This document shows positions 12,538-38,010 of a stretch of DNA of 64,000 bases, piece after piece. Position 1 is the stretch's first letter. Each line of letters opens with the position of its first letter. Source of the stretch: Methanobacteriota archaeon (lineage in GTDB: Archaea; Thermoplasmatota; Poseidoniia; Poseidoniales; Thalassarchaeaceae); assembly GCA_016845345.1 (NCBI GenBank), contig JAERSV010000039.1, positions 1,113-65,112 on the forward strand, given 5' to 3'. A program made the position numbers and the translations under genes. The notes below the pieces were generated by a model that saw only the letters and a program-made list of their open reading frames with translations, ran no database searches and was not told where the DNA came from.

Positions 12538-12558
12538 CAATAAAATCTTGTTTTAAAG

Positions 12559-25719: not shown

Positions 25720-26349
25720 ATGACAATGGCAGTTGATGTAACCAGCCTGATTCCGGTTGCATTCGTACTAGCTGGTGGAGCGATTTCACCCGGCCCAAGC
25801 CTTGCAGTCGTACTTCGCAACACGATTGCTGGTGGCCGTTCTAGAGGAATTGCATGTTCTATTGGACATGGACTTGGGCTAGGGATTTACGCATTCTTAG
25901 CAATTAGCGGAATTGCATTTTTGAAATCAGGAGGAGGTTCTTTTTCTACAACCCTAGAATTAGCAGGAGCGGCCTTCTTGGTTTGGGTAGCAATATCCAT
26001 GCTTCGTGATATTAAAGTAGACGAGAAAAACACTGAATTACACGACGAAGGAAAACGTCAAGGGTTTGTTGAGGGATTCCTCATTGCATTCTTAAATCCA
26101 AAAATTTTCGTCTTTTTGACTGCTATTTTCAGTCAATTCATTGCCGCAGGAATGCCACTATCAGATCGATTAATCATCGCTTTTTTAGCATTAGTAATTG
26201 ACACATCATGGTACATCATTGTCGCCATTGCATTATCCGGAACGGCTATGCTTGAAAGCCTGAAAGAGCGAGGGAAACTCATTGATATCGTTGTAGCAAT
26301 TATTTTGCTTGGGTTGGCAATAACCATCTTTGCAAAATATCTAATGTGA
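25720..26349 (+). CDS. LysE/RhtB-family amino-acid exporter
   Basis: About 209 aa with 6 TM. The N-terminal AISPGPS motif and NPK motif are typical of LysE/RhtB. Confidence 0.7.
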   Translation: MTMAVDVTSLIPVAFVLAGGAISPGPSLAVVLRNTIAGGRSRGIACSIGHGLGLGIYAFLAISGIAFLKSGGGSFSTTLELAGAAFLVWVAISMLRDIKVDEKNTELHDEGKRQGFVEGFLIAFLNPKIFVFLTAIFSQFIAAGMPLSDRLIIAFLALVIDTSWYIIVAIALSGTAMLESLKERGKLIDIVVAIILLGLAITIFAKYLM

Positions 26350-26394
26350 ATTAAAAGTCACAATTTGGCCGGCATCCAACTAGAGGATTTAGGA

Positions 26395-27813
26395 TCATCT
26401 GCGTGGTGGGCCACGCTTTTTTGGACCGCCGGGAGGGCCGCCACGCTTTGGCGGACCGCCGGCTTTTGGAGGTCCACCTTTGGAAGGAGGGCCACCGGGA
26501 CCACCGCGGCTTGGAGGGCCACCCGGTCCACCGCGACTTGGAGGACCGCCTCTACTTGGAGGGCCACCGGGGCCACCCGGTCCACCGCGACTTGGAGGAC
26601 CGCCTCTACTTGGAGGGCCACCGGGACCACCCGGTCCACCGCGACTTGGAGGACCGCCTCTACTTGGAGGGCCACCGGGACCACCCGGTCCACCGCGACT
26701 CGGAGGACCGCCTCTACTTGGCGGACCACCGGGGCCACCCGGTCCACCGCGACTCGGAGGACCGCCTCTACTTGGCGGACCACCGGGGCCACCCGGTCCA
26801 CCGCGACTCGGGCCTCTTGGAGGACCTCCTCCGCTAGGAGGCCCGCCTCCGGGGCCATCTTCCTCATCATCCTCGTCATCGTCTTCGAACATTGCCCCGC
26901 AATTTGGGCAAGCAGGGTCGGATTCCATTACTGGATAATGACCACAAGCCTCGCAAGCGAATTTCTCTTCATCGTCTTCAACCTCTTCTTCTTCCGGTGC
27001 TTCGCCCCACACATGGGAAACTTCACCTTCTGTAGATGAGAAGAGAACCACAGAAACTGATAATTCAAGTCCTTTGAGAGCAACCTCTGTTTGAATTGCA
27101 TGTGAAAAAGCATTTGAGAGGTCTGAGGGTGTATCCAATACCCTGCCATCATCAATGTAAGTGACATTGACTCTTACTAAATCATCTTCCAAAGAGATTT
27201 GTGGAGATTCAACAGCCACACCTCGCTTCCGTGCAACTCGGCGAACAGCAACCTCAGCCATTCTTCTTAGAAGGCCAACCGAAGGTCCATCCTTCGGGTC
27301 AGGAGGTGCATCCCCTAATGCATCTTCAAGAAAACGAGCGGCTCCTGAAGCAACAGAATCTTCACGGCGTAGATGGGCCGGTAATTCAGAATTAACTTGA
27401 GAAAGAACATCGGTTGCTGTTTGTTGATTCATAGAAAGCCACTCGCTGCGGGCTTCTGTCTTTTGCTCTTTTTCAGCAACAACCATGCGGTCAACAACTT
27501 GGTTTGTTCCAGACATAGCACCACCAAAAGCATCAGACATATCGGCTGATGCGTTTTCAGATGGAGCGGGATCTGCTGGTTCTGCGCTTTGACCAGACTT
27601 CATTTGAAATGCCAACTGATTGAGCGTGTCAACATCCATCGCTTGAGGTGCAGGTTGACTCACCGCATCATCCTGACCAGCCGACTGAACTGCTTGTGGT
27701 GTCACAACCCCGAAAGAACGCCCCCCTGCACTTGACAAGTCTTGCCTTGCGCCACACTCTGGACAGAAAATTGAGTCATCGGGGATTTCATCTGAACATG
27801 ATTGGCAGTCCAT
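26395..27813 (-). CDS. Zinc-ribbon protein with long Pro/Gly/Arg-rich repeat tail
   Basis: Has an N-terminal ribbon CQSCSDEIPDDSIFCPECG and a second ribbon CEACG...CPNCG. These are followed by an acidic stretch, ~150 aa of GGPGGPGGPPSRGGPPSR repeats, and the basic end KKRGPPRR. Confidence 0.7.
   Translation of the reverse strand: MDCQSCSDEIPDDSIFCPECGARQDLSSAGGRSFGVVTPQAVQSAGQDDAVSQPAPQAMDVDTLNQLAFQMKSGQSAEPADPAPSENASADMSDAFGGAMSGTNQVVDRMVVAEKEQKTEARSEWLSMNQQTATDVLSQVNSELPAHLRREDSVASGAARFLEDALGDAPPDPKDGPSVGLLRRMAEVAVRRVARKRGVAVESPQISLEDDLVRVNVTYIDDGRVLDTPSDLSNAFSHAIQTEVALKGLELSVSVVLFSSTEGEVSHVWGEAPEEEEVEDDEEKFACEACGHYPVMESDPACPNCGAMFEDDDEDDEEDGPGGGPPSGGGPPRGPSRGGPGGPGGPPSRGGPPSRGGPGGPGGPPSRGGPPSRGGPGGPGGPPSRGGPPSRGGPGGPGGPPSRGGPPSRGGPGGPGGPPSRGGPPSRGGPGGPPSRGGPGGPPSKGGPPKAGGPPKRGGPPGGPKKRGPPRR
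26473..26830. repeat. 54-bp tandem repeat, ~6 copies (GC-rich)
   Basis: tccaccgcgact(t/c)gg recurs at 26527, 26581, 26635, 26689, 26743 and 26797 (exact 54-bp period). Several frames on both strands are open across it. Confidence 0.9.
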
Positions 27814-30504: not shown

Positions 30505-32277
30505 ATGAGAGTAGCAGTTCTTCTTGATGACAGATGTCAGCCAAAAAAATGCGACGACCAATGCCACGCTTTTTGCCCACCAGTACGTAACGGCCAAGAA
30601 TGCATTGTGTTCCATGAAAAAACAAAAAAGCCGATAATTTCAGAACAACTCTGTATCGGCTGTGGAATCTGCGTAAACAAGTGTCCATTTGACGCATTAG
30701 TAATTCAAAATCTTCCAGAAGAATTGGAATCTGACATGATTCATAGATATGGCAGAAATGGGTTCCGTCTTTTCCGCCTACCAGCACCGCGTGAGGAACA
30801 AGTGGTGGGAATACTCGGTCAAAATGGGATGGGCAAATCAACCGCGATCAACATTCTCTCGGGGGGCCTCACACCTAACTTGGGTGACTGGCATATTGAC
30901 GCGGCTGAGTGGGACGAGATTCTAGGGAGCCTACCAAAGGGAGAGTTACGAGATTACCTTGAACTAGTGGCTGGCACAGGGGTAAGGGTGGCTCTCAAGC
31001 CTCAATATGTTGACCATATCCCGAAGGCATTCAAGGGTCAAGTCGGTGAATTGTTGGCAACTGTTGACGAGCGGGATGCAATGAAAGAAGTCACTACGGA
31101 CTTAGGAATTGACCATTTGCTTGAGAGAAATTTACCACAACTTTCTGGCGGCGAATTGCAGAGAGTTGCTATCGCCGCCACATTGTTGAAAGATGCAGAT
31201 GTCTATTTCTTTGATGAGCCATCATCTTATCTTGACATATTTGAGAGAATGAGAATTGTCAAAATATTGCAAAATCTTTCCGAAGGAAAACGAGTCATCG
31301 TGATTGAGCACGACTTGGCTATTCTCGATGTTCTGTGCGACCTTGTTCACATCGTTTACGGGACTAGGGCGGCATTTGGAATTTTCACTCCCCCACGTTC
31401 AACTCGCAAAGCAATCAATGCCTATCTTGACGGCTTTTTAGTTGAGGAGAATGTACGGATTCGCGATAAACCTATCTCTTTTGTGAGAGGTACTGTGCGT
31501 GAAGAGGCGGTGGGATTACCTATTCTAGAATGGGGAGACTTAGAGAAAAAACTTGGAAATTTCCAACTCACAACAGGAAAAGGTACACTTCATGAAACAG
31601 AAGTGGTTGGGGTTGTTGGTCCTAATGCGACTGGCAAAACCACGCTAGCCAAGATATTTGCTGGGGAATTGGAGATGGACGCTGGATGGTGCACGATGGA
31701 GGCGAAGGTTTCCTATAAGCCGCAGCACATTACTGCAGAATTCCCCGGTTCAGTACGCGAATGGCTAGATGCTGAAATTGGCAGTTCTTGGCATGTGGGT
31801 GAATTTCAAACTAGAGTTGTTAGGCCATTAGAGGTTGACAAATTGTTGGAACTTGATGCGTCTCGCCTATCTGGAGGCGAATTACAAGCAGTCTCAATTG
31901 TAATCTGTCTTGGTAGGGATGCTGACATTTATTTGTTGGATGAACCAAGTGCTCATTTGGATGCTAACGCAAGAATGGAGGCGGCGAAGGCTATCAGGAG
32001 AACCATGGAGTCCAATGAAAAATCGGCAATGGTGATTGACCATGACATATATTTCATAGATATCGTTAGTGATTCTTTACTTGTGTTTGAGGGTGAGGGA
32101 GGAACCGCAGGAGAAGCGATTGGGCCACTAACATTGAGAAAGGGAATGAATCGATTTTTGAAAGGAGTTGGAGTTACTTTCCGTAGAGATCATGATTCAA
32201 AGCGACCACGTATCAATAAAGAAGCCAGCCAAAAAGACCGTGAACAGAAAGCGAACGATGATTACTACTACAGTTGA
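30505..32277 (+). CDS. ABCE1 / RNase L inhibitor homolog (ribosome recycling ATPase)
   Basis: An N-terminal Fe-S domain (CQPKKCDDQCHAFCP; CIGCGICVNKCP) is followed by two ABC cassettes (GQNGMGKST, GPNATGKTT, 2 x LSGGELQ). SD aggggtgag. Confidence 0.92.
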   Translation: MRVAVLLDDRCQPKKCDDQCHAFCPPVRNGQECIVFHEKTKKPIISEQLCIGCGICVNKCPFDALVIQNLPEELESDMIHRYGRNGFRLFRLPAPREEQVVGILGQNGMGKSTAINILSGGLTPNLGDWHIDAAEWDEILGSLPKGELRDYLELVAGTGVRVALKPQYVDHIPKAFKGQVGELLATVDERDAMKEVTTDLGIDHLLERNLPQLSGGELQRVAIAATLLKDADVYFFDEPSSYLDIFERMRIVKILQNLSEGKRVIVIEHDLAILDVLCDLVHIVYGTRAAFGIFTPPRSTRKAINAYLDGFLVEENVRIRDKPISFVRGTVREEAVGLPILEWGDLEKKLGNFQLTTGKGTLHETEVVGVVGPNATGKTTLAKIFAGELEMDAGWCTMEAKVSYKPQHITAEFPGSVREWLDAEIGSSWHVGEFQTRVVRPLEVDKLLELDASRLSGGELQAVSIVICLGRDADIYLLDEPSAHLDANARMEAAKAIRRTMESNEKSAMVIDHDIYFIDIVSDSLLVFEGEGGTAGEAIGPLTLRKGMNRFLKGVGVTFRRDHDSKRPRINKEASQKDREQKANDDYYYS

Positions 32278-32285
32278 GTGATTTA

Positions 32286-34181
32286 ATGCCAGTTGTACTT
32301 CCACCAAGCGCAGGATATCTTGGCAAGAGCAGGCGCCGGATTTCAGCCAGTGGCTTAGTCACTTGGGAGCGCTGTCCACGCCAATGGCACTATCGCAGAA
32401 GAATTGGACTCAATGATGCTACAAATCCTGAAATGATTATTGGATTAGTTGTTGAAGATGCACTTTGCGGGCTTTTCATGCAACGTTTTCCTGAAAACGA
32501 AACGGCAATGCCGGGGCTAGTAGAATGGGTGAATTTTAGCCGCCAAGAAAACGGGTTAGGGAAAATTAGCCCTAATGATGAGGTCATTATCAAAGATTTA
32601 GAATCAATTTCACAATGGATGGAATTGGTTATTCCTTCATTAGTTCAGGAAGTTCAGAGACTCTTACAAGCGCGTTGGGATGCCACTCAATGGAAATCCG
32701 CTGGCCGTGATATTGCAGAAGTTAAAGATGAACGAATTGAGAATCTAATTCGTGGTGGAATCAAATTACAATTAGAAGAAGTTGAAAACTGCTTCAACGC
32801 TGGTGGCGGGCCACATCTCAAATCTTACAGAAATGCAGGTGACCCGTTCACAGTTCCGGCACCTTGTTGGGATGAAGTACCGGTTTCTCCGGGTGAAGAT
32901 GCAAATCGTAGTGCGACTGATGGATTTGAAAAATCAGGTGATGTCACTATCTGGGAAGCCTGGGAAATCGCTAGACCATGGGTCAAAGACCCAAGAATTG
33001 CCGTGCCTCAAAGGCTCTTTCACCCTGATGGTTGGGCCGCTGGTGAGATGGATTTGGTACACAGATGGGACGGAAATGTCAGAATCTGTGATATTAAGGC
33101 AAGCGCTGGTACAAGCGGATATTCTGCTGGATTAGCCAATCAACTTCGGTTTTACCAGTGGCTATGGGGAATTACCCGAACCCACTCAGGCCGGCCTAGT
33201 AAAGGCGAAAGTGGTGGTGAACTTTCCGGTCTCGAAGGGTGGTACTTGAATGGTCCGCACAGAAAAATAGTTGAATTGCTAGATGAGAAAACCCTTGATT
33301 CAGAATCTGCTCGTTGGAAAAATATTCACGAACAAATGACTCTTTCGGGACTACACCCCACTCACCTCGCGCCTGCTGACCCTGCACCTTGGCTAACTCA
33401 CTCACCGGGAGGAAAAGCACTTCCTGTTGAAGATGAGGAGGAGGCTAAATCGTTGACTTGTAAACGATGTACTGCGGCCGCATTTTGTGATGCTGCCCCA
33501 GAGAAAATACAAGCAAAAGCACTTGCAGCCTTAACTCCACCTGAACTTGGTAATCCTGAGAATTTGGTTGCGTCTTTGGTACCAAAAGCACCTTGCACGA
33601 TGATTTCTGAGATACCTCAACGGCTCAATGTTAAGGGTGAGGTAAAGGGACAATGGGGTCCACTATCGAACCACTTTGGCGAAGAAGTACGAGGGGCAAC
33701 AATTGTTGTGGGGAGCACGAACGTAACGATCGAAGAGATGGGTGCGGAGTCATTTGGTGAAATTCCTTCAGGCACTGAATTAGCATTACTTGATGTAGCT
33801 CCCGGAGTATGGCGGCGGATGACAAGATTATATCTTGACGAACATAGTTCAATGAAGCCAGTCGACGAAGTAGATGATGTTGAATTTACCAGACTTGGAT
33901 TAATTCCAACCAAGGCGAACCTCTCTGGGCAGGTTGTTAGCAGAGGTGGCCACAGTGGTGTCAACGCTAGAGGGAAGCCTTGGTCAATGTCAACTTGCCA
34001 CATATGGGACGGTGAATCAGTTATCGAAGTCGTTGCCTTTGGCTCAGCAATTACGAGAACTTTTCAAAAATTACAAGTTGGTGATATTGTACGGATTCTA
34101 GCCGCTGAATTAGGATGGAGAGATGGAGTGCCGCAAGTAAGAATTGACCAGCGTAATACCCGACTTGAAGTCAAAGAGTAA
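32286..34181 (+). CDS. Cas4/AddB-like iron-staple PD-(D/E)xK nuclease fused to C-terminal OB-fold-like region (paralog A)
   Basis: Motifs: SASGLVTWERCPRQW, VVEDAL, GEMDLV, ICDIKAS, QLRFYQWLW and CKRCTAAAFC (CX2CX5C, nt 33459-33488). The beta-rich C-terminal ~180 aa includes ...MSTCHIWDGESVIEVVAFG...LQVGDIVRI... ATG lies 8 nt after the ABCE1 stop. Confidence 0.7.
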   Translation: MPVVLPPSAGYLGKSRRRISASGLVTWERCPRQWHYRRRIGLNDATNPEMIIGLVVEDALCGLFMQRFPENETAMPGLVEWVNFSRQENGLGKISPNDEVIIKDLESISQWMELVIPSLVQEVQRLLQARWDATQWKSAGRDIAEVKDERIENLIRGGIKLQLEEVENCFNAGGGPHLKSYRNAGDPFTVPAPCWDEVPVSPGEDANRSATDGFEKSGDVTIWEAWEIARPWVKDPRIAVPQRLFHPDGWAAGEMDLVHRWDGNVRICDIKASAGTSGYSAGLANQLRFYQWLWGITRTHSGRPSKGESGGELSGLEGWYLNGPHRKIVELLDEKTLDSESARWKNIHEQMTLSGLHPTHLAPADPAPWLTHSPGGKALPVEDEEEAKSLTCKRCTAAAFCDAAPEKIQAKALAALTPPELGNPENLVASLVPKAPCTMISEIPQRLNVKGEVKGQWGPLSNHFGEEVRGATIVVGSTNVTIEEMGAESFGEIPSGTELALLDVAPGVWRRMTRLYLDEHSSMKPVDEVDDVEFTRLGLIPTKANLSGQVVSRGGHSGVNARGKPWSMSTCHIWDGESVIEVVAFGSAITRTFQKLQVGDIVRILAAELGWRDGVPQVRIDQRNTRLEVKE

Positions 34182-34222: not shown

Positions 34223-36121
34223 ATGATGCCGGTCTTAGACCCACCAAGCGAAGACCCTGTTGGTCCTTACTCGCGGCTTTCTCACACTCAAGCCGATATG
34301 CATCGCCGATGTCCAAAAATGTGGTATAATCGCTATATTCTTGGTTTGTTAGGTGGCTCCCCGCCAATTTTTGCAATGGGCCACGCTGTTGAGGGAGCAT
34401 TGAACAGAGTGATGCGAGATTCACCAGTATTAGTTTCCCACGATTCACGATCAGAAACTTTTGATTCGCCTCTTGAAGAGGTTGATATTTCAGGCACGGG
34501 AAATGTCGTAGTCAGACCATCGACCCAAACTAATGCAAATTGGCCCGGACTAAGTCTTTCTACCCTTGATAAATCAGAATGGCCACGAGAGCGTCTACAG
34601 ATTACAACATGGGCCAAGGCTAGAGCCAGAATTCACTTTGAAAGAGAATGGGCACAAGCGAAGAAAGAATGGTTAGAAGATCCAAACCGAGTCGGAGATT
34701 GGGATATTTTTGAGGAAAAACGAAAGGAAGAAGCCTGTCAAATGGTATTTGCTGGAATTGAGTTCCATCTTGATGAAGTGGAAGATTGCATGAAAGCAAA
34801 TGGGGGTCCTACATTCAAGGACTGGCGGGTGGGAAAAAATCGCCCCAAATGGCCAGCGCCTGATGGCTTTCCTTACGCCCATTCAATTCCGCATCCATGC
34901 GCTGAATCCTCGGGTGAAATTACTTTTGTTGAAGCATGGGAAGTAGCAAGACCTTGGTTTTGTGACCCTGATGCAGGCCTTTTCGCTCTTACAGCAATTC
35001 ATCCAGAAGGTTGGCTACAGGGAGAATATGATTTAGTCTATAGATGGACAGGCAGCCCTAGAATTCATGATGTTAAAGCGAGTGTTGGCACCTCAGATTA
35101 TTCCTTTGGATACCCTGAACAATTAGCAACTTATGCCTACCTTTGGTGGAGTACGCACAACAGAAAGGAATTGGTTAGTGAATTAGAAATATGGTATCTT
35201 GGAGTCCCAGTTAGAAAAAAAATCAATCTACCTGATGAAAAATCATTACTCAGACTTGAAAATAGACTCAAATCACTTCACAAGAAACTCAAGATGTCCG
35301 AACAAAATCCAGAAAATGAATACCCTGGAAATCCAGCACCGGTTAGGATTTTTGCAGAAGGTGGAGTCCTTACAGATGCGCCACCACTTACTGGGATGGC
35401 TAGATGTGATTCATGTGAGTATCAACTTGTTTGCACTGATTCACCTCATAAAGAAGAATTGTTGAAAGGCGGGTCAACTAAATTTTCTTCAACATCAGAG
35501 GCACAGATAAATTGCACACCTATTGGTGACATTGACCCATTTGTGACAGTTAGAGGAACCGTTAGGGAACCAAATATGGTAAAACAATGGCCAAAGTTTG
35601 AGAAAGAATATCTTGAGTTCTTCCTTGATTTAGGGCCAAGCGAATGGTTGGCTGTTGTAATTAGACAGGATAACCCAAATATTCCATTTGGTTTTGAACA
35701 TGGAGCAACAGTTCGCATCAGAAATGGAATTATTGCATCTGGCTGGAAAAAAAGTTTGGGTGCTCACAAGCGACTTGATGTGTCAGCCAGTGGAACCATC
35801 GAATTAGCCCCCACATCGTCTGAAGATGATGTGGCTTTTGCGAAATTAATTCCAGAGGAGTACAACGTCCACGCGCGTCTGTATAACTTTAATCACCAAG
35901 AAGGGAAATGGGCTGCTAAACTGATAGATGATACTGGTTCGGCATCATTTCAAGTCTGGGGTGGAGATGAAAAATCACGTGCAGTTCTTGAGGGATATAA
36001 CCCTGAAAGGGGTGACGAAGTGGTACTTGTTGGGGCACAGGCAAAGGACCAGTATGGGCAAATTGTGCTTCAAGCGAGGGTTACCAAAACATTTGCAACT
36101 CGTCTACGTCCAAAACCATAG
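34223..36121 (+). CDS. Cas4/AddB-like iron-staple PD-(D/E)xK nuclease fused to C-terminal OB-fold-like region (paralog B)
   Basis: Colinear with paralog A: MMPVLDPPS, HRRCPKMW, AVEGAL, GEYDLV, IHDVKAS, QLATYAYLWW and CDSCEYQLVC (nt 35404-35433). The C-terminal part includes ...AAKLIDDTGSASFQVWGG...RGDEVVLVGAQ... Confidence 0.7.
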   Translation: MMPVLDPPSEDPVGPYSRLSHTQADMHRRCPKMWYNRYILGLLGGSPPIFAMGHAVEGALNRVMRDSPVLVSHDSRSETFDSPLEEVDISGTGNVVVRPSTQTNANWPGLSLSTLDKSEWPRERLQITTWAKARARIHFEREWAQAKKEWLEDPNRVGDWDIFEEKRKEEACQMVFAGIEFHLDEVEDCMKANGGPTFKDWRVGKNRPKWPAPDGFPYAHSIPHPCAESSGEITFVEAWEVARPWFCDPDAGLFALTAIHPEGWLQGEYDLVYRWTGSPRIHDVKASVGTSDYSFGYPEQLATYAYLWWSTHNRKELVSELEIWYLGVPVRKKINLPDEKSLLRLENRLKSLHKKLKMSEQNPENEYPGNPAPVRIFAEGGVLTDAPPLTGMARCDSCEYQLVCTDSPHKEELLKGGSTKFSSTSEAQINCTPIGDIDPFVTVRGTVREPNMVKQWPKFEKEYLEFFLDLGPSEWLAVVIRQDNPNIPFGFEHGATVRIRNGIIASGWKKSLGAHKRLDVSASGTIELAPTSSEDDVAFAKLIPEEYNVHARLYNFNHQEGKWAAKLIDDTGSASFQVWGGDEKSRAVLEGYNPERGDEVVLVGAQAKDQYGQIVLQARVTKTFATRLRPKP

Positions 36122-36130
36122 CATTCGCTC

Positions 36131-36651
36131 GGTTCAAATCTCCTCTCGGCTTGATGACTGATGCTTATTAGCGCCGAGAGAGAGATTTGAAATGTTGGCA
36201 CTAGACCAATTTCATCATCTTTCATCTTCGGGAAGTGCCAACATGCGAAGGATTGCTTGCAATCCTGAAGCATCCCGCGTAGCGGGAGTTCAATTTCAGC
36301 AATTTTGACCTCTCGGTGACAACGCTTCTCATCGATTGACAACAGAGTTGGCGCCGAGAGGGAGATTTCTGTTTGTTCCAGAACTTCCTTCGCTTCGCTC
36401 AGTGCAGTTCTGAACCATCGCGAGTTTTCTGTTGCATCATTGATTATTGAAAACTCGCTGGGTTCAAATCTCCTCTCGGCTTGATGACTGATGATTATTA
36501 GCGCTGAGAGAGAGACTTCTGTTTGTTCCAGAACTTCCTTCGCTTCGCTCAGTACAGTTCTGAACCATCGCGAGTTTTCTGTTGCATCATTGATTATTGA
36601 AAACTCGCTGGGTTCAAATCTCCTCTCGGCTTGATGACAGATGTTTGATGA
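36131..36651. repeat. Array of direct and inverted copies of the tRNA-Ser 3' end, including a 150-bp tandem duplication
   Basis: Inverted copies ggttcaaatctcctctcggc lie at 36131, 36461 and 36611, with a degenerate one ending at 36318. Direct copies cgc(c/t)gagag(g/a)gaga(t/c)tt lie at 36172, 36352 and 36502, and the tRNA itself at 36652. Units 36352-36501 and 36502-36651 show about 10 mismatches by hand alignment. Confidence 0.9.
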
Positions 36652-36734
36652 CGCCGAGAGGGAGATTCGAACTCCCGCGTCACGAGGACAGTGGATTTCG
36701 AATCCACCGCGATACCGGGCTATGCGATCTCGGC
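36652..36734 (-). tRNA. tRNA-Ser (anticodon CGA), class II with long variable arm
   Basis: Acceptor GCCGAGA/TCTCGGC, discriminator G, anticodon arm GTGGA-TTCGAAA-TCCAC, variable arm TGTCCTCGTGACG(C), T arm GGGAG-TTCGAAT-CTCCC. The D stem pairs poorly in my hand fold. Confidence 0.8.
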
Positions 36735-36810
36735 TTAGTAATCCGGCCGAACAATCTGATTGAGATAAGTGTGGTGATGAGTTCAAGTGGGAGTGGCGAT
36801 TCGCCAAACC

Positions 36811-37036: not shown

Positions 37037-37804
37037 TTAGGCGTAGAATCCTGCATCTTGTTCTGAAACATCAAAGTCAATCGGCATTTCAGCGATTTCA
37101 TCAAGGTCAAAAAATGCCTTCAATTTTTCAGCGGTTTCTTTCGTGTTGTTGAGTTCAAGACCGAGATTTAATTTGAATGATTCATTTAGAAAAGTGACCA
37201 TTCGGTCTGCTGCTACAGAATCAGCACTTGTGCCAACGGTTTCAGCGATAATACATGCTGATGATTGGTTGAATGTGGGAGCCAATGATGACACCATCCC
37301 CGTCATCCCAATAATTCCAGCCGCAGGATGCTCTTTGGAAACTTCAACACCAATATCAGTGATATCTTTGACATCATCTGCACTAGCGCAGACCACGTGT
37401 ACTGCTTCATCTCCAGGCTCTGCGGAGAGCCCTGCTAAAATCAATAATCGGCCGATTTTTGCATCCTTACAACATTCTAACAATGATGAAGCAACCTCAT
37501 ATTGCCCAGCCGGTGTCAACGGCTGAAAATTACTTGAAAGTGTCAAAATTTTACTGCCATTAGGTAACTCAACAGAATGGATATCAAGAGATGGTGGTGT
37601 TAATATCCCATTCTCACTAAGAGTTGCATGCGGTGGCAAGTCAGGATGAAGTAAACGTGCTACTAAATCGCTATCATGTGTATTCACTAGGCTGTCAGTA
37701 ACTAATTTACCAACATTACCAACACCGGGAACAGCGTGTAACATCAAATCATTTTTTGGAAGCTTTTTTGCTCCACCGTACCACACAATTCGAGTCCGAC
37801 TCAC
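37037..37804 (-). CDS. PAC2-family (proteasome assembly chaperone 2-like) protein
   Basis: LMLHAVPGVGNVGKLV matches the GxPGxGxVG PAC2 signature. GTG 37804 overlaps the nop10 TGA (GTGA) and follows gggggaagaggag. The longer ORF would run through nop10. Confidence 0.7.
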   Translation of the reverse strand: MSRTRIVWYGGAKKLPKNDLMLHAVPGVGNVGKLVTDSLVNTHDSDLVARLLHPDLPPHATLSENGILTPPSLDIHSVELPNGSKILTLSSNFQPLTPAGQYEVASSLLECCKDAKIGRLLILAGLSAEPGDEAVHVVCASADDVKDITDIGVEVSKEHPAAGIIGMTGMVSSLAPTFNQSSACIIAETVGTSADSVAADRMVTFLNESFKLNLGLELNNTKETAEKLKAFFDLDEIAEMPIDFDVSEQDAGFYA

Positions 37805-38010
37805 TCCTCTTCCCCCTTGGGGCTTGGTAGGTTTTCCACCCATTTTGGGTCGGTTACTTTTTGATATTCTCGTCGGCGTTTTGCCTGAGGGTCTTGGGGT
37901 GAAAACTTGAGCGGCCCTGCTGCTTGGGCAACTCCCCCACACTTCTTGCAGGTAGTGCTTAGGCCATAACTGCCACAATCTCGGCATTTCTGAATTCTTG
38001 AGCGAGCCAT
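37801..38010 (-). CDS. nop10: H/ACA RNP protein Nop10
   Basis: IQKCRDCGSYGLSTTCKKCGG...PLKFSPQDP matches the Nop10 zinc ribbon plus the PxKFSPxD motif. SD aaggtg. Confidence 0.85.
   Translation of the reverse strand: MARSRIQKCRDCGSYGLSTTCKKCGGVAQAAGPLKFSPQDPQAKRRREYQKVTDPKWVENLPSPKGEEE

Follow-up and report, generated by a model that had tools for sequence, protein, structure and literature searches.

The stretch analysed here, referred to below as the window, comprises 64,000 nucleotides of contig JAERSV010000039.1 from a Thalassarchaeaceae archaeon of the order Poseidoniales. It is archaeal housekeeping DNA, in which genes for squalene synthase, ABCE1 and two paralogous proteins of about 630 amino acids with PD-(D/E)XK and OB-fold domains are followed by tRNA-Ser(CGA), SAMP2, PAC2 and aIF2-alpha, and homologues of the second nuclease carry the labels marine group II/III or Poseidoniales. 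Between this nuclease gene and the tRNA gene lies an array of gene-less units of about 150 bp that contain copies of the tRNA's own 3′ end, and it is the nature of these units that concerns us here. An earlier note on this DNA, made by inspection of the letters, had already placed the tRNA gene and the copies of its end, and ARAGORN, Rfam and sequence search bear out all of these positions.

Two kinds of copy recur through the array (Table 1). The first, X, copies the 3′ end of the tRNA (T-loop plus the 3′ strands of the T-stem and the acceptor stem) in inverted orientation and minus one C, while the second, Y, is the same segment in tRNA orientation and begins at T-loop position 57. The X 20-mer, GGTTCAAATCTCCTCTCGGC, has three exact sites, at 36131, 36461 and 36611, and no others in the 64 kb at up to three mismatches (0.01 expected by chance); a degenerate X copy ends at 36318, as had been noted. 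Y copies begin at 36172, 36352, 36502 and 36652, the last of these being the end of the tRNA gene itself. X pairs with Y over approximately 15 bp with one bulge, giving imperfect terminal inverted repeats of 15-20 bp around a non-coding unit of 129-131 bp, or about 150 bp with its spacer. The junction in which X and Y are separated by 21 nt does occur three times, as the earlier note had it, and forms a 64-nt repeat family of three members with 94% and 86% identity to the reference. The array amounts to three units and one truncated unit, each bounded by direct repeats of the tRNA end. The outermost remnant abuts the stop codon of the nuclease gene (36119-36121), its repeat family, D2, beginning at 36125. 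An open reading frame (ORF) of 245 amino acids on the minus strand (36070-36807) takes in the entire array together with the tRNA and, although almost certainly spurious, could be mis-annotated as a gene.

Table 1. Features of the tRNA-Ser(CGA) locus, listed from the tRNA gene outwards (window coordinates; R1 is the covariance model described in the text)
Feature	Position	Strand	Remarks
tRNA-Ser(CGA)	36652-36734	minus	ARAGORN; Rfam 48.6 bits
Spacer sp4, 21 nt, from tRNA discriminator base to inverted copy X3	36631-36651	minus	sequence not conserved between lineages
Unit 3	36502-36630	minus	R1 164.8 bits
Unit 3, parts	X3 36611-36630; hairpin B 36570-36579/36599-36608; hairpin A 36527-36535/36556-36564; Y3 from 36502
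Unit 3, junction CTGAACCATC	36560-36569	minus
Spacer sp3, 21 nt	36481-36501	minus	20/21 identical to sp1; 6 differences from sp4
Unit 2	36352-36480	minus	R1 167.2 bits
Unit 2, parts	X2 36461-36480; hairpin B 36420-36429/36449-36458; hairpin A 36377-36385/36406-36414; Y2 from 36352
Irregular spacer, 33 nt	36319-36351	minus	CCA complement (plus-strand tgg, 36349-36351) adjoins Y2
Unit 1, older diverged copy	36172-36318	minus	not detected by R1 with default filters
Unit 1, Y1	36172-36191	minus	identical to tRNA 3′ end of relative L001
Unit 1, hairpins	extra 36192-36202/36234-36244; A 36250-36256/36259-36265; B 36274-36278/36282-36286
Unit 1, conserved junction CTGAAGCATC	36265-36274
Unit 1, interrupted inverted tRNA copy X1	from 36282-36293 to 36309-36318
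Spacer sp1, 21 nt	36151-36171	minus
Truncated outermost remnant	36122-36150	minus	X0 36131-36150 plus 6-9 nt matching the start of hairpin B

The same locus can be followed in relatives that lack the array. In 11 contigs whose nuclease is 89-95% identical to that of the window (among them L001 and L021-L029), the stop codon is followed by 24 nt and then by the tRNA-Ser(CGA) 3′ end with its CCA encoded, free of repeats, and the distance from the stop codon to SAMP2 is 160-184 bp in these empty contigs as against 666 bp in the window. The array is likewise absent from relatives at 70-72% identity. Comparison of these sequences indicates that the array is an insertion and not a conserved feature of the locus, and the units are missing from the orthologous tRNA-Ser locus in all of the relatives at 89-95%. 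The tRNA gene itself may also bear traces of the event. Its last 17-20 nt or so (36652-36671, Y4) read TTCGAAT-CTCCC-TCTCGGCG with no encoded CCA, whereas close relatives have TTCAAAT and an encoded CCA (ttgg/cgcc) at the same position; because Y4 differs from the relatives in both respects, the 3′ end of the window's tRNA-Ser(CGA) was probably supplied by the insert. The nuclease pair is a pair of conserved core genes lying outside any mobile element, since gene order is the same in all relatives fetched; its position is kept across Poseidoniales contigs and it is present also in the relatives that are free of the array.

A homologous unit is found directly behind a different gene, tRNA-Ser(GGA), in L008, a metagenome-assembled genome contig in which the neighbouring protein has Thalassarchaeaceae homologues, and in the contigs L033/L035. 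On the tRNA strand L008 reads tRNA-Ser(GGA)-CCA, then 18 nt (which places the next feature 21 nt from the discriminator), and then an identical 20-nt inverted copy, X′. This is followed by a hairpin of 8-9 bp with a 19-nt loop, the sequence GACGG, a 13-bp hairpin with TTCAGA at its start and TCTGGA at its end, and a linker. The distal copy of the tRNA end is ATCTCCCTCTCGCCG-CCAAAC, and since the sequence beyond it can be aligned with the trailer native to the empty allele (L055/L056), this copy is identified as the original tRNA 3′ end, displaced. A third sequence variant of the unit is present in full in L033/L035, together with an older truncated remnant. The contig L036, which has a neighbouring protein identical to that of L033, lacks exactly one 150-bp unit, a difference which, to judge from these two sequences, is the recent gain or loss of one unit; it also holds a decayed, truncated remnant resembling the X0 remnant of the window. 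A decayed piece is left in L053/L054, and the tRNA-Ser(GGA) site is empty in L037, L045-L052 and L055/L056. In all, the unit is known from three lineages, at two different tRNA-Ser genes and in different families. Serial integration at a tRNA attachment (att) site, one of the suggestions of the earlier note, gains support from the empty sites and from the displaced end, CCA and trailer of L008. The copies are not the scars of large integrase-bounded elements, because the unit of about 150 bp is itself conserved across the three lineages and the two tRNA-Ser genes.

All versions of the unit follow one plan, namely the tRNA end, 21 nt, the inverted copy minus one C, two covarying hairpins and a direct copy that starts in the T-loop. 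The distance from the discriminator, or from the end of Y, to X′ is 21 nt at each of the seven intact junctions across lineages, with the sequence of the spacer free to vary. Every copy of X reads CTCC against CTCyC in Y and the tRNA, leaving a one-base bulge; the 20 nt of X′ are identical in the window and L008 even in this missing C; and the junction CTGAAsCrTC (plus strand) is kept even in the diverged unit 1. When sequences from the three lineages are folded singly, all are predicted to form the same three-way junction, and each unit of the window has a bulged closing helix and hairpins of 10 and 9 bp. This is the fold that had been proposed earlier, and it is predicted for either strand and with either RNA or DNA parameters (z-scores of -5.1 and -7.3 for units 2 and 3, and -3.4 for the older unit 1). 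A covariance model (R1) built from window units 2 and 3 only matches L008 (43 bits, E = 1e-7) and L033 (37 bits, E = 2e-6), and nothing further in the window or in 30 other loci. Because a MAFFT-based RNAalifold run misaligned hairpin B and gave only three covarying pairs, a model-fitted alignment was used instead; on this, 96% of cells are paired and 12 pairs have changed on both sides (9/10 in hairpin B), compared with at most two in slid controls, although an alignment of this kind leans towards structure, the lineages are only three, and palindromic DNA would give the same outcome as RNA.

Such a fold raises the possibility that the units are functional tRNA-like RNAs, each an acceptor/T-stem minihelix with two hairpins, which would be co-transcribed with tRNA-Ser and released by RNase P/tRNase Z. 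The DNA repeats would then owe their existence to a benefit that the RNA brings to the host or the element, an idea that is compatible with mobility. The stability of the predicted fold (z of -4.8 to -7.3) and the compensatory changes in three lineages are in keeping with this, as are the invariable position of the unit, on the tRNA strand and directly downstream of the tRNA, and its ends: the 5′ end is the Ser acceptor 5′ strand, and the 3′ end has the discriminator G with CCA in four of six copies. However, acceptor-like ends and CCA are the automatic outcome of duplicating a tRNA end, and duplication of a genomically encoded CCA likewise explains the plus-strand tgg to which the earlier note had drawn attention. 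The fold is predicted equally for the other strand and for DNA, and mismatches in the closing helix show no strand bias; the only hint in favour of the tRNA strand is a U-G pair in hairpin A, conserved in all four sequences, which on the other strand is an A-C mismatch. What stands of the earlier idea of tRNA-like units is a three-way junction kept by compensatory changes. No tRNA, transfer-messenger RNA or Rfam model matches it: ARAGORN and Rfam call nothing of the kind beyond the genuine tRNA-Ser, which alone passes a gathering-threshold scan, and an E-value scan of 36050-36800 returns chance-level matches only. Moreover, no close relative has the unit at either locus and it decays readily, so that it is not a conserved host function, and we consider a functional RNA unlikely. 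By the same token, the pairing through which the trailer had been thought to mask the tRNA 3′ end is indeed predicted, but it is a built-in property of the element and no argument for a role in regulation.

How the window array changed over time can be read from its copies. The repeats at 36352-36501 and 36502-36651, in which about 10 mismatches had been counted by hand with one of them internal, differ at exactly 10 of 150 positions. Six of these lie in the spacer, three in Y and a single one in the 91-nt interior, and X is unchanged. Y and the spacer thus account for nine, against one in the 111 nt of interior and X (Fisher p = 2e-5), and the module Y3-sp3-X2 shares 94% identity with Y1-sp1-X0, compared with only about 86% with the tRNA-proximal module. 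Because of this clustering, and of the closer kinship of Y3-sp3-X2 with Y1-sp1-X0, the pattern is unlike that of one recent tandem duplication, and it agrees with recurrent recombination at the Y/X modules. The CCAA found in the empty allele is retained in Y2 and has been lost from the working tRNA end. The candidates for the original tRNA end are in conflict, with Y2 favoured by its CCAA and Y1 by its identity to the end in L001, and the working end differs, with TTCGAAT and no CCA. The irregular 33-nt spacer may be the displaced original tRNA end and trailer, with CCAA as the main clue; the best match to the ancestral trailer does lie within it (36325-36338) and is not significant, being reached by 466 of 2000 shuffles.

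Much of this could in principle come about with no dedicated mobility at all. Fold-back or template-switch errors at the palindromic T-arm and unequal crossing-over would then have built the array, and it would have spread only by the usual homologous recombination or gene conversion, from one tRNA-Ser paralogue or strain to another. T-loop-proximal sequence is indeed present in every helix, in alternating orientation (X′ ends with TTTGAACC and hairpin A begins with GGTTCAGA), and the GCGGGAG copies of unit 1 face each other across 3 nt. The 3′ end of about 25 nt that is common to all tRNA-Ser genes would offer homology for ectopic exchange, and a Pfam scan of 40 ORFs of the window found no recombinase or transposase. 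Against this, the same interior (the junction CTGAAsCrTC with two hairpins in matching places), missing C and 21-nt spacing occur at two tRNA-Ser genes in different families, with empty sites between, and a shared interior and spacing at two genes point to transfer of a defined, constrained unit rather than to independent accidents; 17-25 bp of homology is also short for frequent host recombination. Local rearrangement is on balance a rather unlikely explanation of the array, while fold-back and duplication may explain how the first unit arose, as the T-loop-proximal sequence in all of the helices would suggest.

The terminal inverted repeats had also led to the suggestion of a miniature inverted-repeat transposable element (MITE) whose ends derive from tRNA-Ser; in a MITE of classical type, a transposase would cut at the tips of the repeats and duplicate a short target. 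The size of the unit, its lack of coding sequence and its imperfect repeats are those of a MITE, but only the miniature and non-autonomous part of the suggestion survives. There is no target-site duplication outside the inverted repeats, as the flanks of X and Y differ and what is duplicated is the tRNA end itself with CCA and trailer. Nor is there dispersal: the array is the one locus in the 64 kb, and in a scan of one genome per species the exact X 20-mer was found in 2 of 185,579 species representatives, one of these hits being L008, and at a single place in the BH13 genome. The seven junctions that are all exactly 21 nt from a tRNA-Ser end are equally foreign to such an element, and no insertion sequence with these ends was found, which makes a classical MITE very unlikely. 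C/D-box RNAs, BHB introns, retrons, bridge RNAs and Tn7-like, IS200/IS605 and casposon elements were considered and dropped as their defining motifs or genes are absent. Casposons encode a Cas1-type integrase, have terminal inverted repeats and duplicate 14-15 bp of their target at a tRNA 3′ end; the insert has no coding capacity, no Cas1 match was found among the window ORFs, and its outer ends, which consist of spacer and linker, do not form inverted repeats.

The explanation that we favour, with a probability of about 0.62, is that the array consists of serially accreted copies of a miniature, non-autonomous, att-bearing insertion element specific for tRNA-Ser. The sequences compared here establish that the insertion is polymorphic and specific for its target, that the tRNA end is regenerated and displaced, and that the architecture, with its covarying stems, is conserved, whereas the recombination reaction itself we infer, and our confidence in any specific enzymology is much lower than that in an insertion element. 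On the tRNA strand the element would comprise its own copy of the tRNA-Ser 3′ end (T-loop to discriminator, with or without CCA), the 21-nt spacer and X′, and would continue with hairpin B, a short conserved junction, hairpin A and a linker. It would recombine with a chromosomal tRNA gene inside the common segment that runs from the T-loop to the 3′ end, such that the tRNA is rebuilt with the end copy of the element and the earlier end is displaced outward as a direct repeat. Arrays would grow by repeated insertion at the regenerated end and by recombination among modules, the older copies decaying. The enzyme is most likely a site-specific integrase of the tyrosine type, provided in trans by another Poseidoniales element, with host homologous recombination on 17-25 bp of identity as the second choice; the inverted repeat at its fixed 21-nt spacing and the two hairpins would be the features that the recombination machinery recognises.

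A number of points weigh against this explanation. In addition to the lack of a recombinase or transposase in the window, neither an integrase nor a transposase was found in the flanks of the units in L008 and L033 or in the larger inserts of L009 and L010 described below. Blastn of the unit against phage and plasmid records gave no match, and scans of viral contigs with X, the tRNA-Ser end and a relaxed X′ gave nothing or else unrelated high-GC phage regions and phage tRNA genes, so that none of these three collections yielded a relative that is free or autonomous. Excision products and circle junctions were not seen either, and a double-stranded circle of 150 bp is a poor substrate for recombination. 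The independent lineages known number only three. Finally, simple tRNA-proximal stacking does not account for the way the copies are ordered in the window, since the CCA-bearing Y2 lies mid-array and the L001-identical Y1 outermost, and the putative trailer remnant, although in the right place, lacks statistical significance and is not relied upon.

A bolder proposal is that the inverted and direct copies do more than provide passive att homology, and form a single-strand duplex that mimics the chromosomal target and is read by a host or hijacked enzyme. By analogy, the strand could be DNA, as in integron attC and CTX-phage attP, or RNA co-transcribed with tRNA-Ser, and the reader could be a recombinase or else RNase P, tRNase Z or the CCA-adding enzyme; we consider such target mimicry unlikely. 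In integron attC and CTX-phage attP(+) sites, imperfect inverted repeats pair into a duplex that resembles the chromosomal target. Like these sites, the unit has a stem with a conserved unpaired base (X being one C short) and forms tandem arrays by insertion at a fixed primary site; unlike them, it has no integron integrase, Xer/dif context or R-box consensus, and its target is a tRNA gene. An attC- or CTX-type site was rejected as a classification, with no tyrosine recombinase in the window and a T-loop sequence, GTTCAAA, that does not fit the R-box GTTRRRY. Single-strand chemistry for the unit, drawn as it is from these analogies, would be pure conjecture.

Returning to the insertion element that we favour, its closest parallels are among elements that use tRNA genes as att sites. 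The preferred sites of archaeal integrases are the 3′ end or T stem-loop of tRNA genes, which are restored on integration (PMC8371274), integrase-less att-bearing elements, known as cis-mobilizable elements (CIMEs), accrete in tandem in bacteria (PMC5704250), and in Poseidoniales integrase-carrying elements integrate next to tRNA genes (10.1101/2025.08.03.668216). Two hallmarks of tRNA-targeted islands (Islander definition, PMC4383910) are found here, namely insertion into a tRNA gene with a restored tRNA and a displaced direct repeat, and an empty target site in relatives; another, an integrase gene on the element, is absent from a non-coding unit of 150 bp. Like islands and CIMEs, the unit inserts in the 3′ part of the tRNA, carries a copy of it and regenerates the tRNA, with the displaced fragment as a direct repeat at the far end, newer copies at the regenerated end and older copies in decay. 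With CIMEs in particular it shares an att-bearing composition (attL and attR) with no recombinase, integration or transfer genes, and the formation of tandem arrays at one att site, three units and a truncated one in the window and one unit with a remnant in L033. It differs from both in being only about 150 bp long and wholly non-coding, in having the same compact architecture in three lineages, as would not be expected of a random deletion remnant, and in its inverted att copy at a fixed 21 nt and its two covarying hairpins. To our knowledge, an inverted att copy at fixed spacing and covarying hairpins are not features of described att sites, and we know of no cognate integrase. Viral, phage and plasmid collections yielded no larger relative of the unit, be it an integrative and conjugative element, an integrative and mobilizable element or a virus.

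Small dispersed repeats offer a second comparison. The unit resembles MITEs and other small palindromic repeats such as Correia, ERIC, RUP and REPIN (compare PMC10969869) in size, in the absence of coding capacity, in its imperfect inverted repeats and strong hairpin fold, and in its reliance on functions provided in trans. In contrast to these repeats, it is strictly tied to the tRNA-Ser 3′ end, which its inverted repeats copy, and it has neither a short outer target duplication nor genome-wide dispersal. Tandem units behind a tRNA gene, each with a direct copy of the 3′ end, also bring to mind the repeats downstream of E. coli tyrT, where each unit holds the last nucleotides of tRNA-Tyr. We know of no inverted copy, three-way-junction fold, movement between tRNA genes or presence/absence polymorphism in the tyrT repeats.

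The end of tRNA-Ser is a hot spot for insertion, and other inserts in marine group II (MGII) share this target. In a metagenome scan X had 12 matches, four of which are MGII tRNA-Ser(GGA) loci where X serves as a direct repeat bounding larger inserts; the other eight have no tRNA-Ser or repeat context and appear unrelated. The MGII contigs L009 (1028-3451), L010 (998-2604), L011 and L013 have inserts of 1.5-2.3 kb behind tRNA-Ser(GGA) with direct repeats that begin in the T-loop, and L010 has two nested direct repeats of the tRNA end. Their cargo is a 702-amino-acid ORF, which in L009 has no Pfam or PHROG match, or small ORFs resembling membrane and helix-turn-helix proteins. Further afield, Natronosalvus hydrolyticus (L007, 7181-7404) has, 110 nt behind its tRNA-Ser(CGA), a direct copy of the tRNA 3′ end with a few trailer bases and the same one-C deletion as X. 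It has no inverted copy or hairpins, and as a direct repeat only it was rejected as a carrier of the unit.

A few further observations concern the locus and its surroundings. The tRNA-Ser(CGA) gene has the opposite strand in the relatives at 70-72% identity (L002, 6957-7040; L003, 6796-6879) to that in the window clade (at least 89%), with the same two neighbours, which on this gene order is a single-gene inversion and may have arisen incidentally when inverted copies of the tRNA end recombined. The tandem nuclease paralogues (32274-34181 and 34223-36121) directly follow ABCE1 and each consist of a PD-(D/E)XK nuclease domain with a C-terminal OB fold. The PAC2 ORF (37037-37987) encodes 316 amino acids from its first possible start codon as against 255-256 in all relatives, the true start probably being internal to the listed ORF, and PAC2 is followed in relatives by Nop10, S27e and L44e. 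There is a local GC peak at 26001-27813 (0.55 versus about 0.45), overlapping a 472-amino-acid protein with zinc-ribbon matches only, and no comparable repeats adjoin tRNA-Thr(TGT) at 12558.

The array is a repeat region, for which an assembly error is possible, and such units do cause short-read assemblies to break or collapse. In the related scaffold L034 a gap, a run of N at about 1817-1915, lies exactly where its sister contig L033 carries a 150-bp unit, and several short Logan contigs (L023-L025) terminate inside the tRNA-Ser 3′ end. Arrays of this kind may be under-represented in public data and are probably under-counted.

Poseidoniales are among the most abundant archaea of the surface ocean, yet none is in culture and very little is known of their mobile elements. 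What is new here is a gene-less unit of 150 bp with an inverted copy of its own att site at a fixed spacing and two covarying hairpins, which extends the idea of an att-only, integrase-less element to a structured unit of this size. Each insertion alters the tRNA gene, in that it removes the encoded CCA and brings in, 21 nt downstream, a 19-bp competitor for the tRNA 3′ end; on the predicted pairing, this competitor could affect the maturation of tRNA-Ser. The unit would be a compact marker of recombination at tRNA-Ser genes, with presence/absence polymorphism within populations that is useful for strain tracking, and it is a lead to a recombinase that recognises the T-arm and acceptor end of tRNA-Ser. 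Should target mimicry prove true, the unit would represent a new class of mini mobile elements, guided by structure and mimicking a tRNA, in a group of archaea that is among the most abundant in the ocean.

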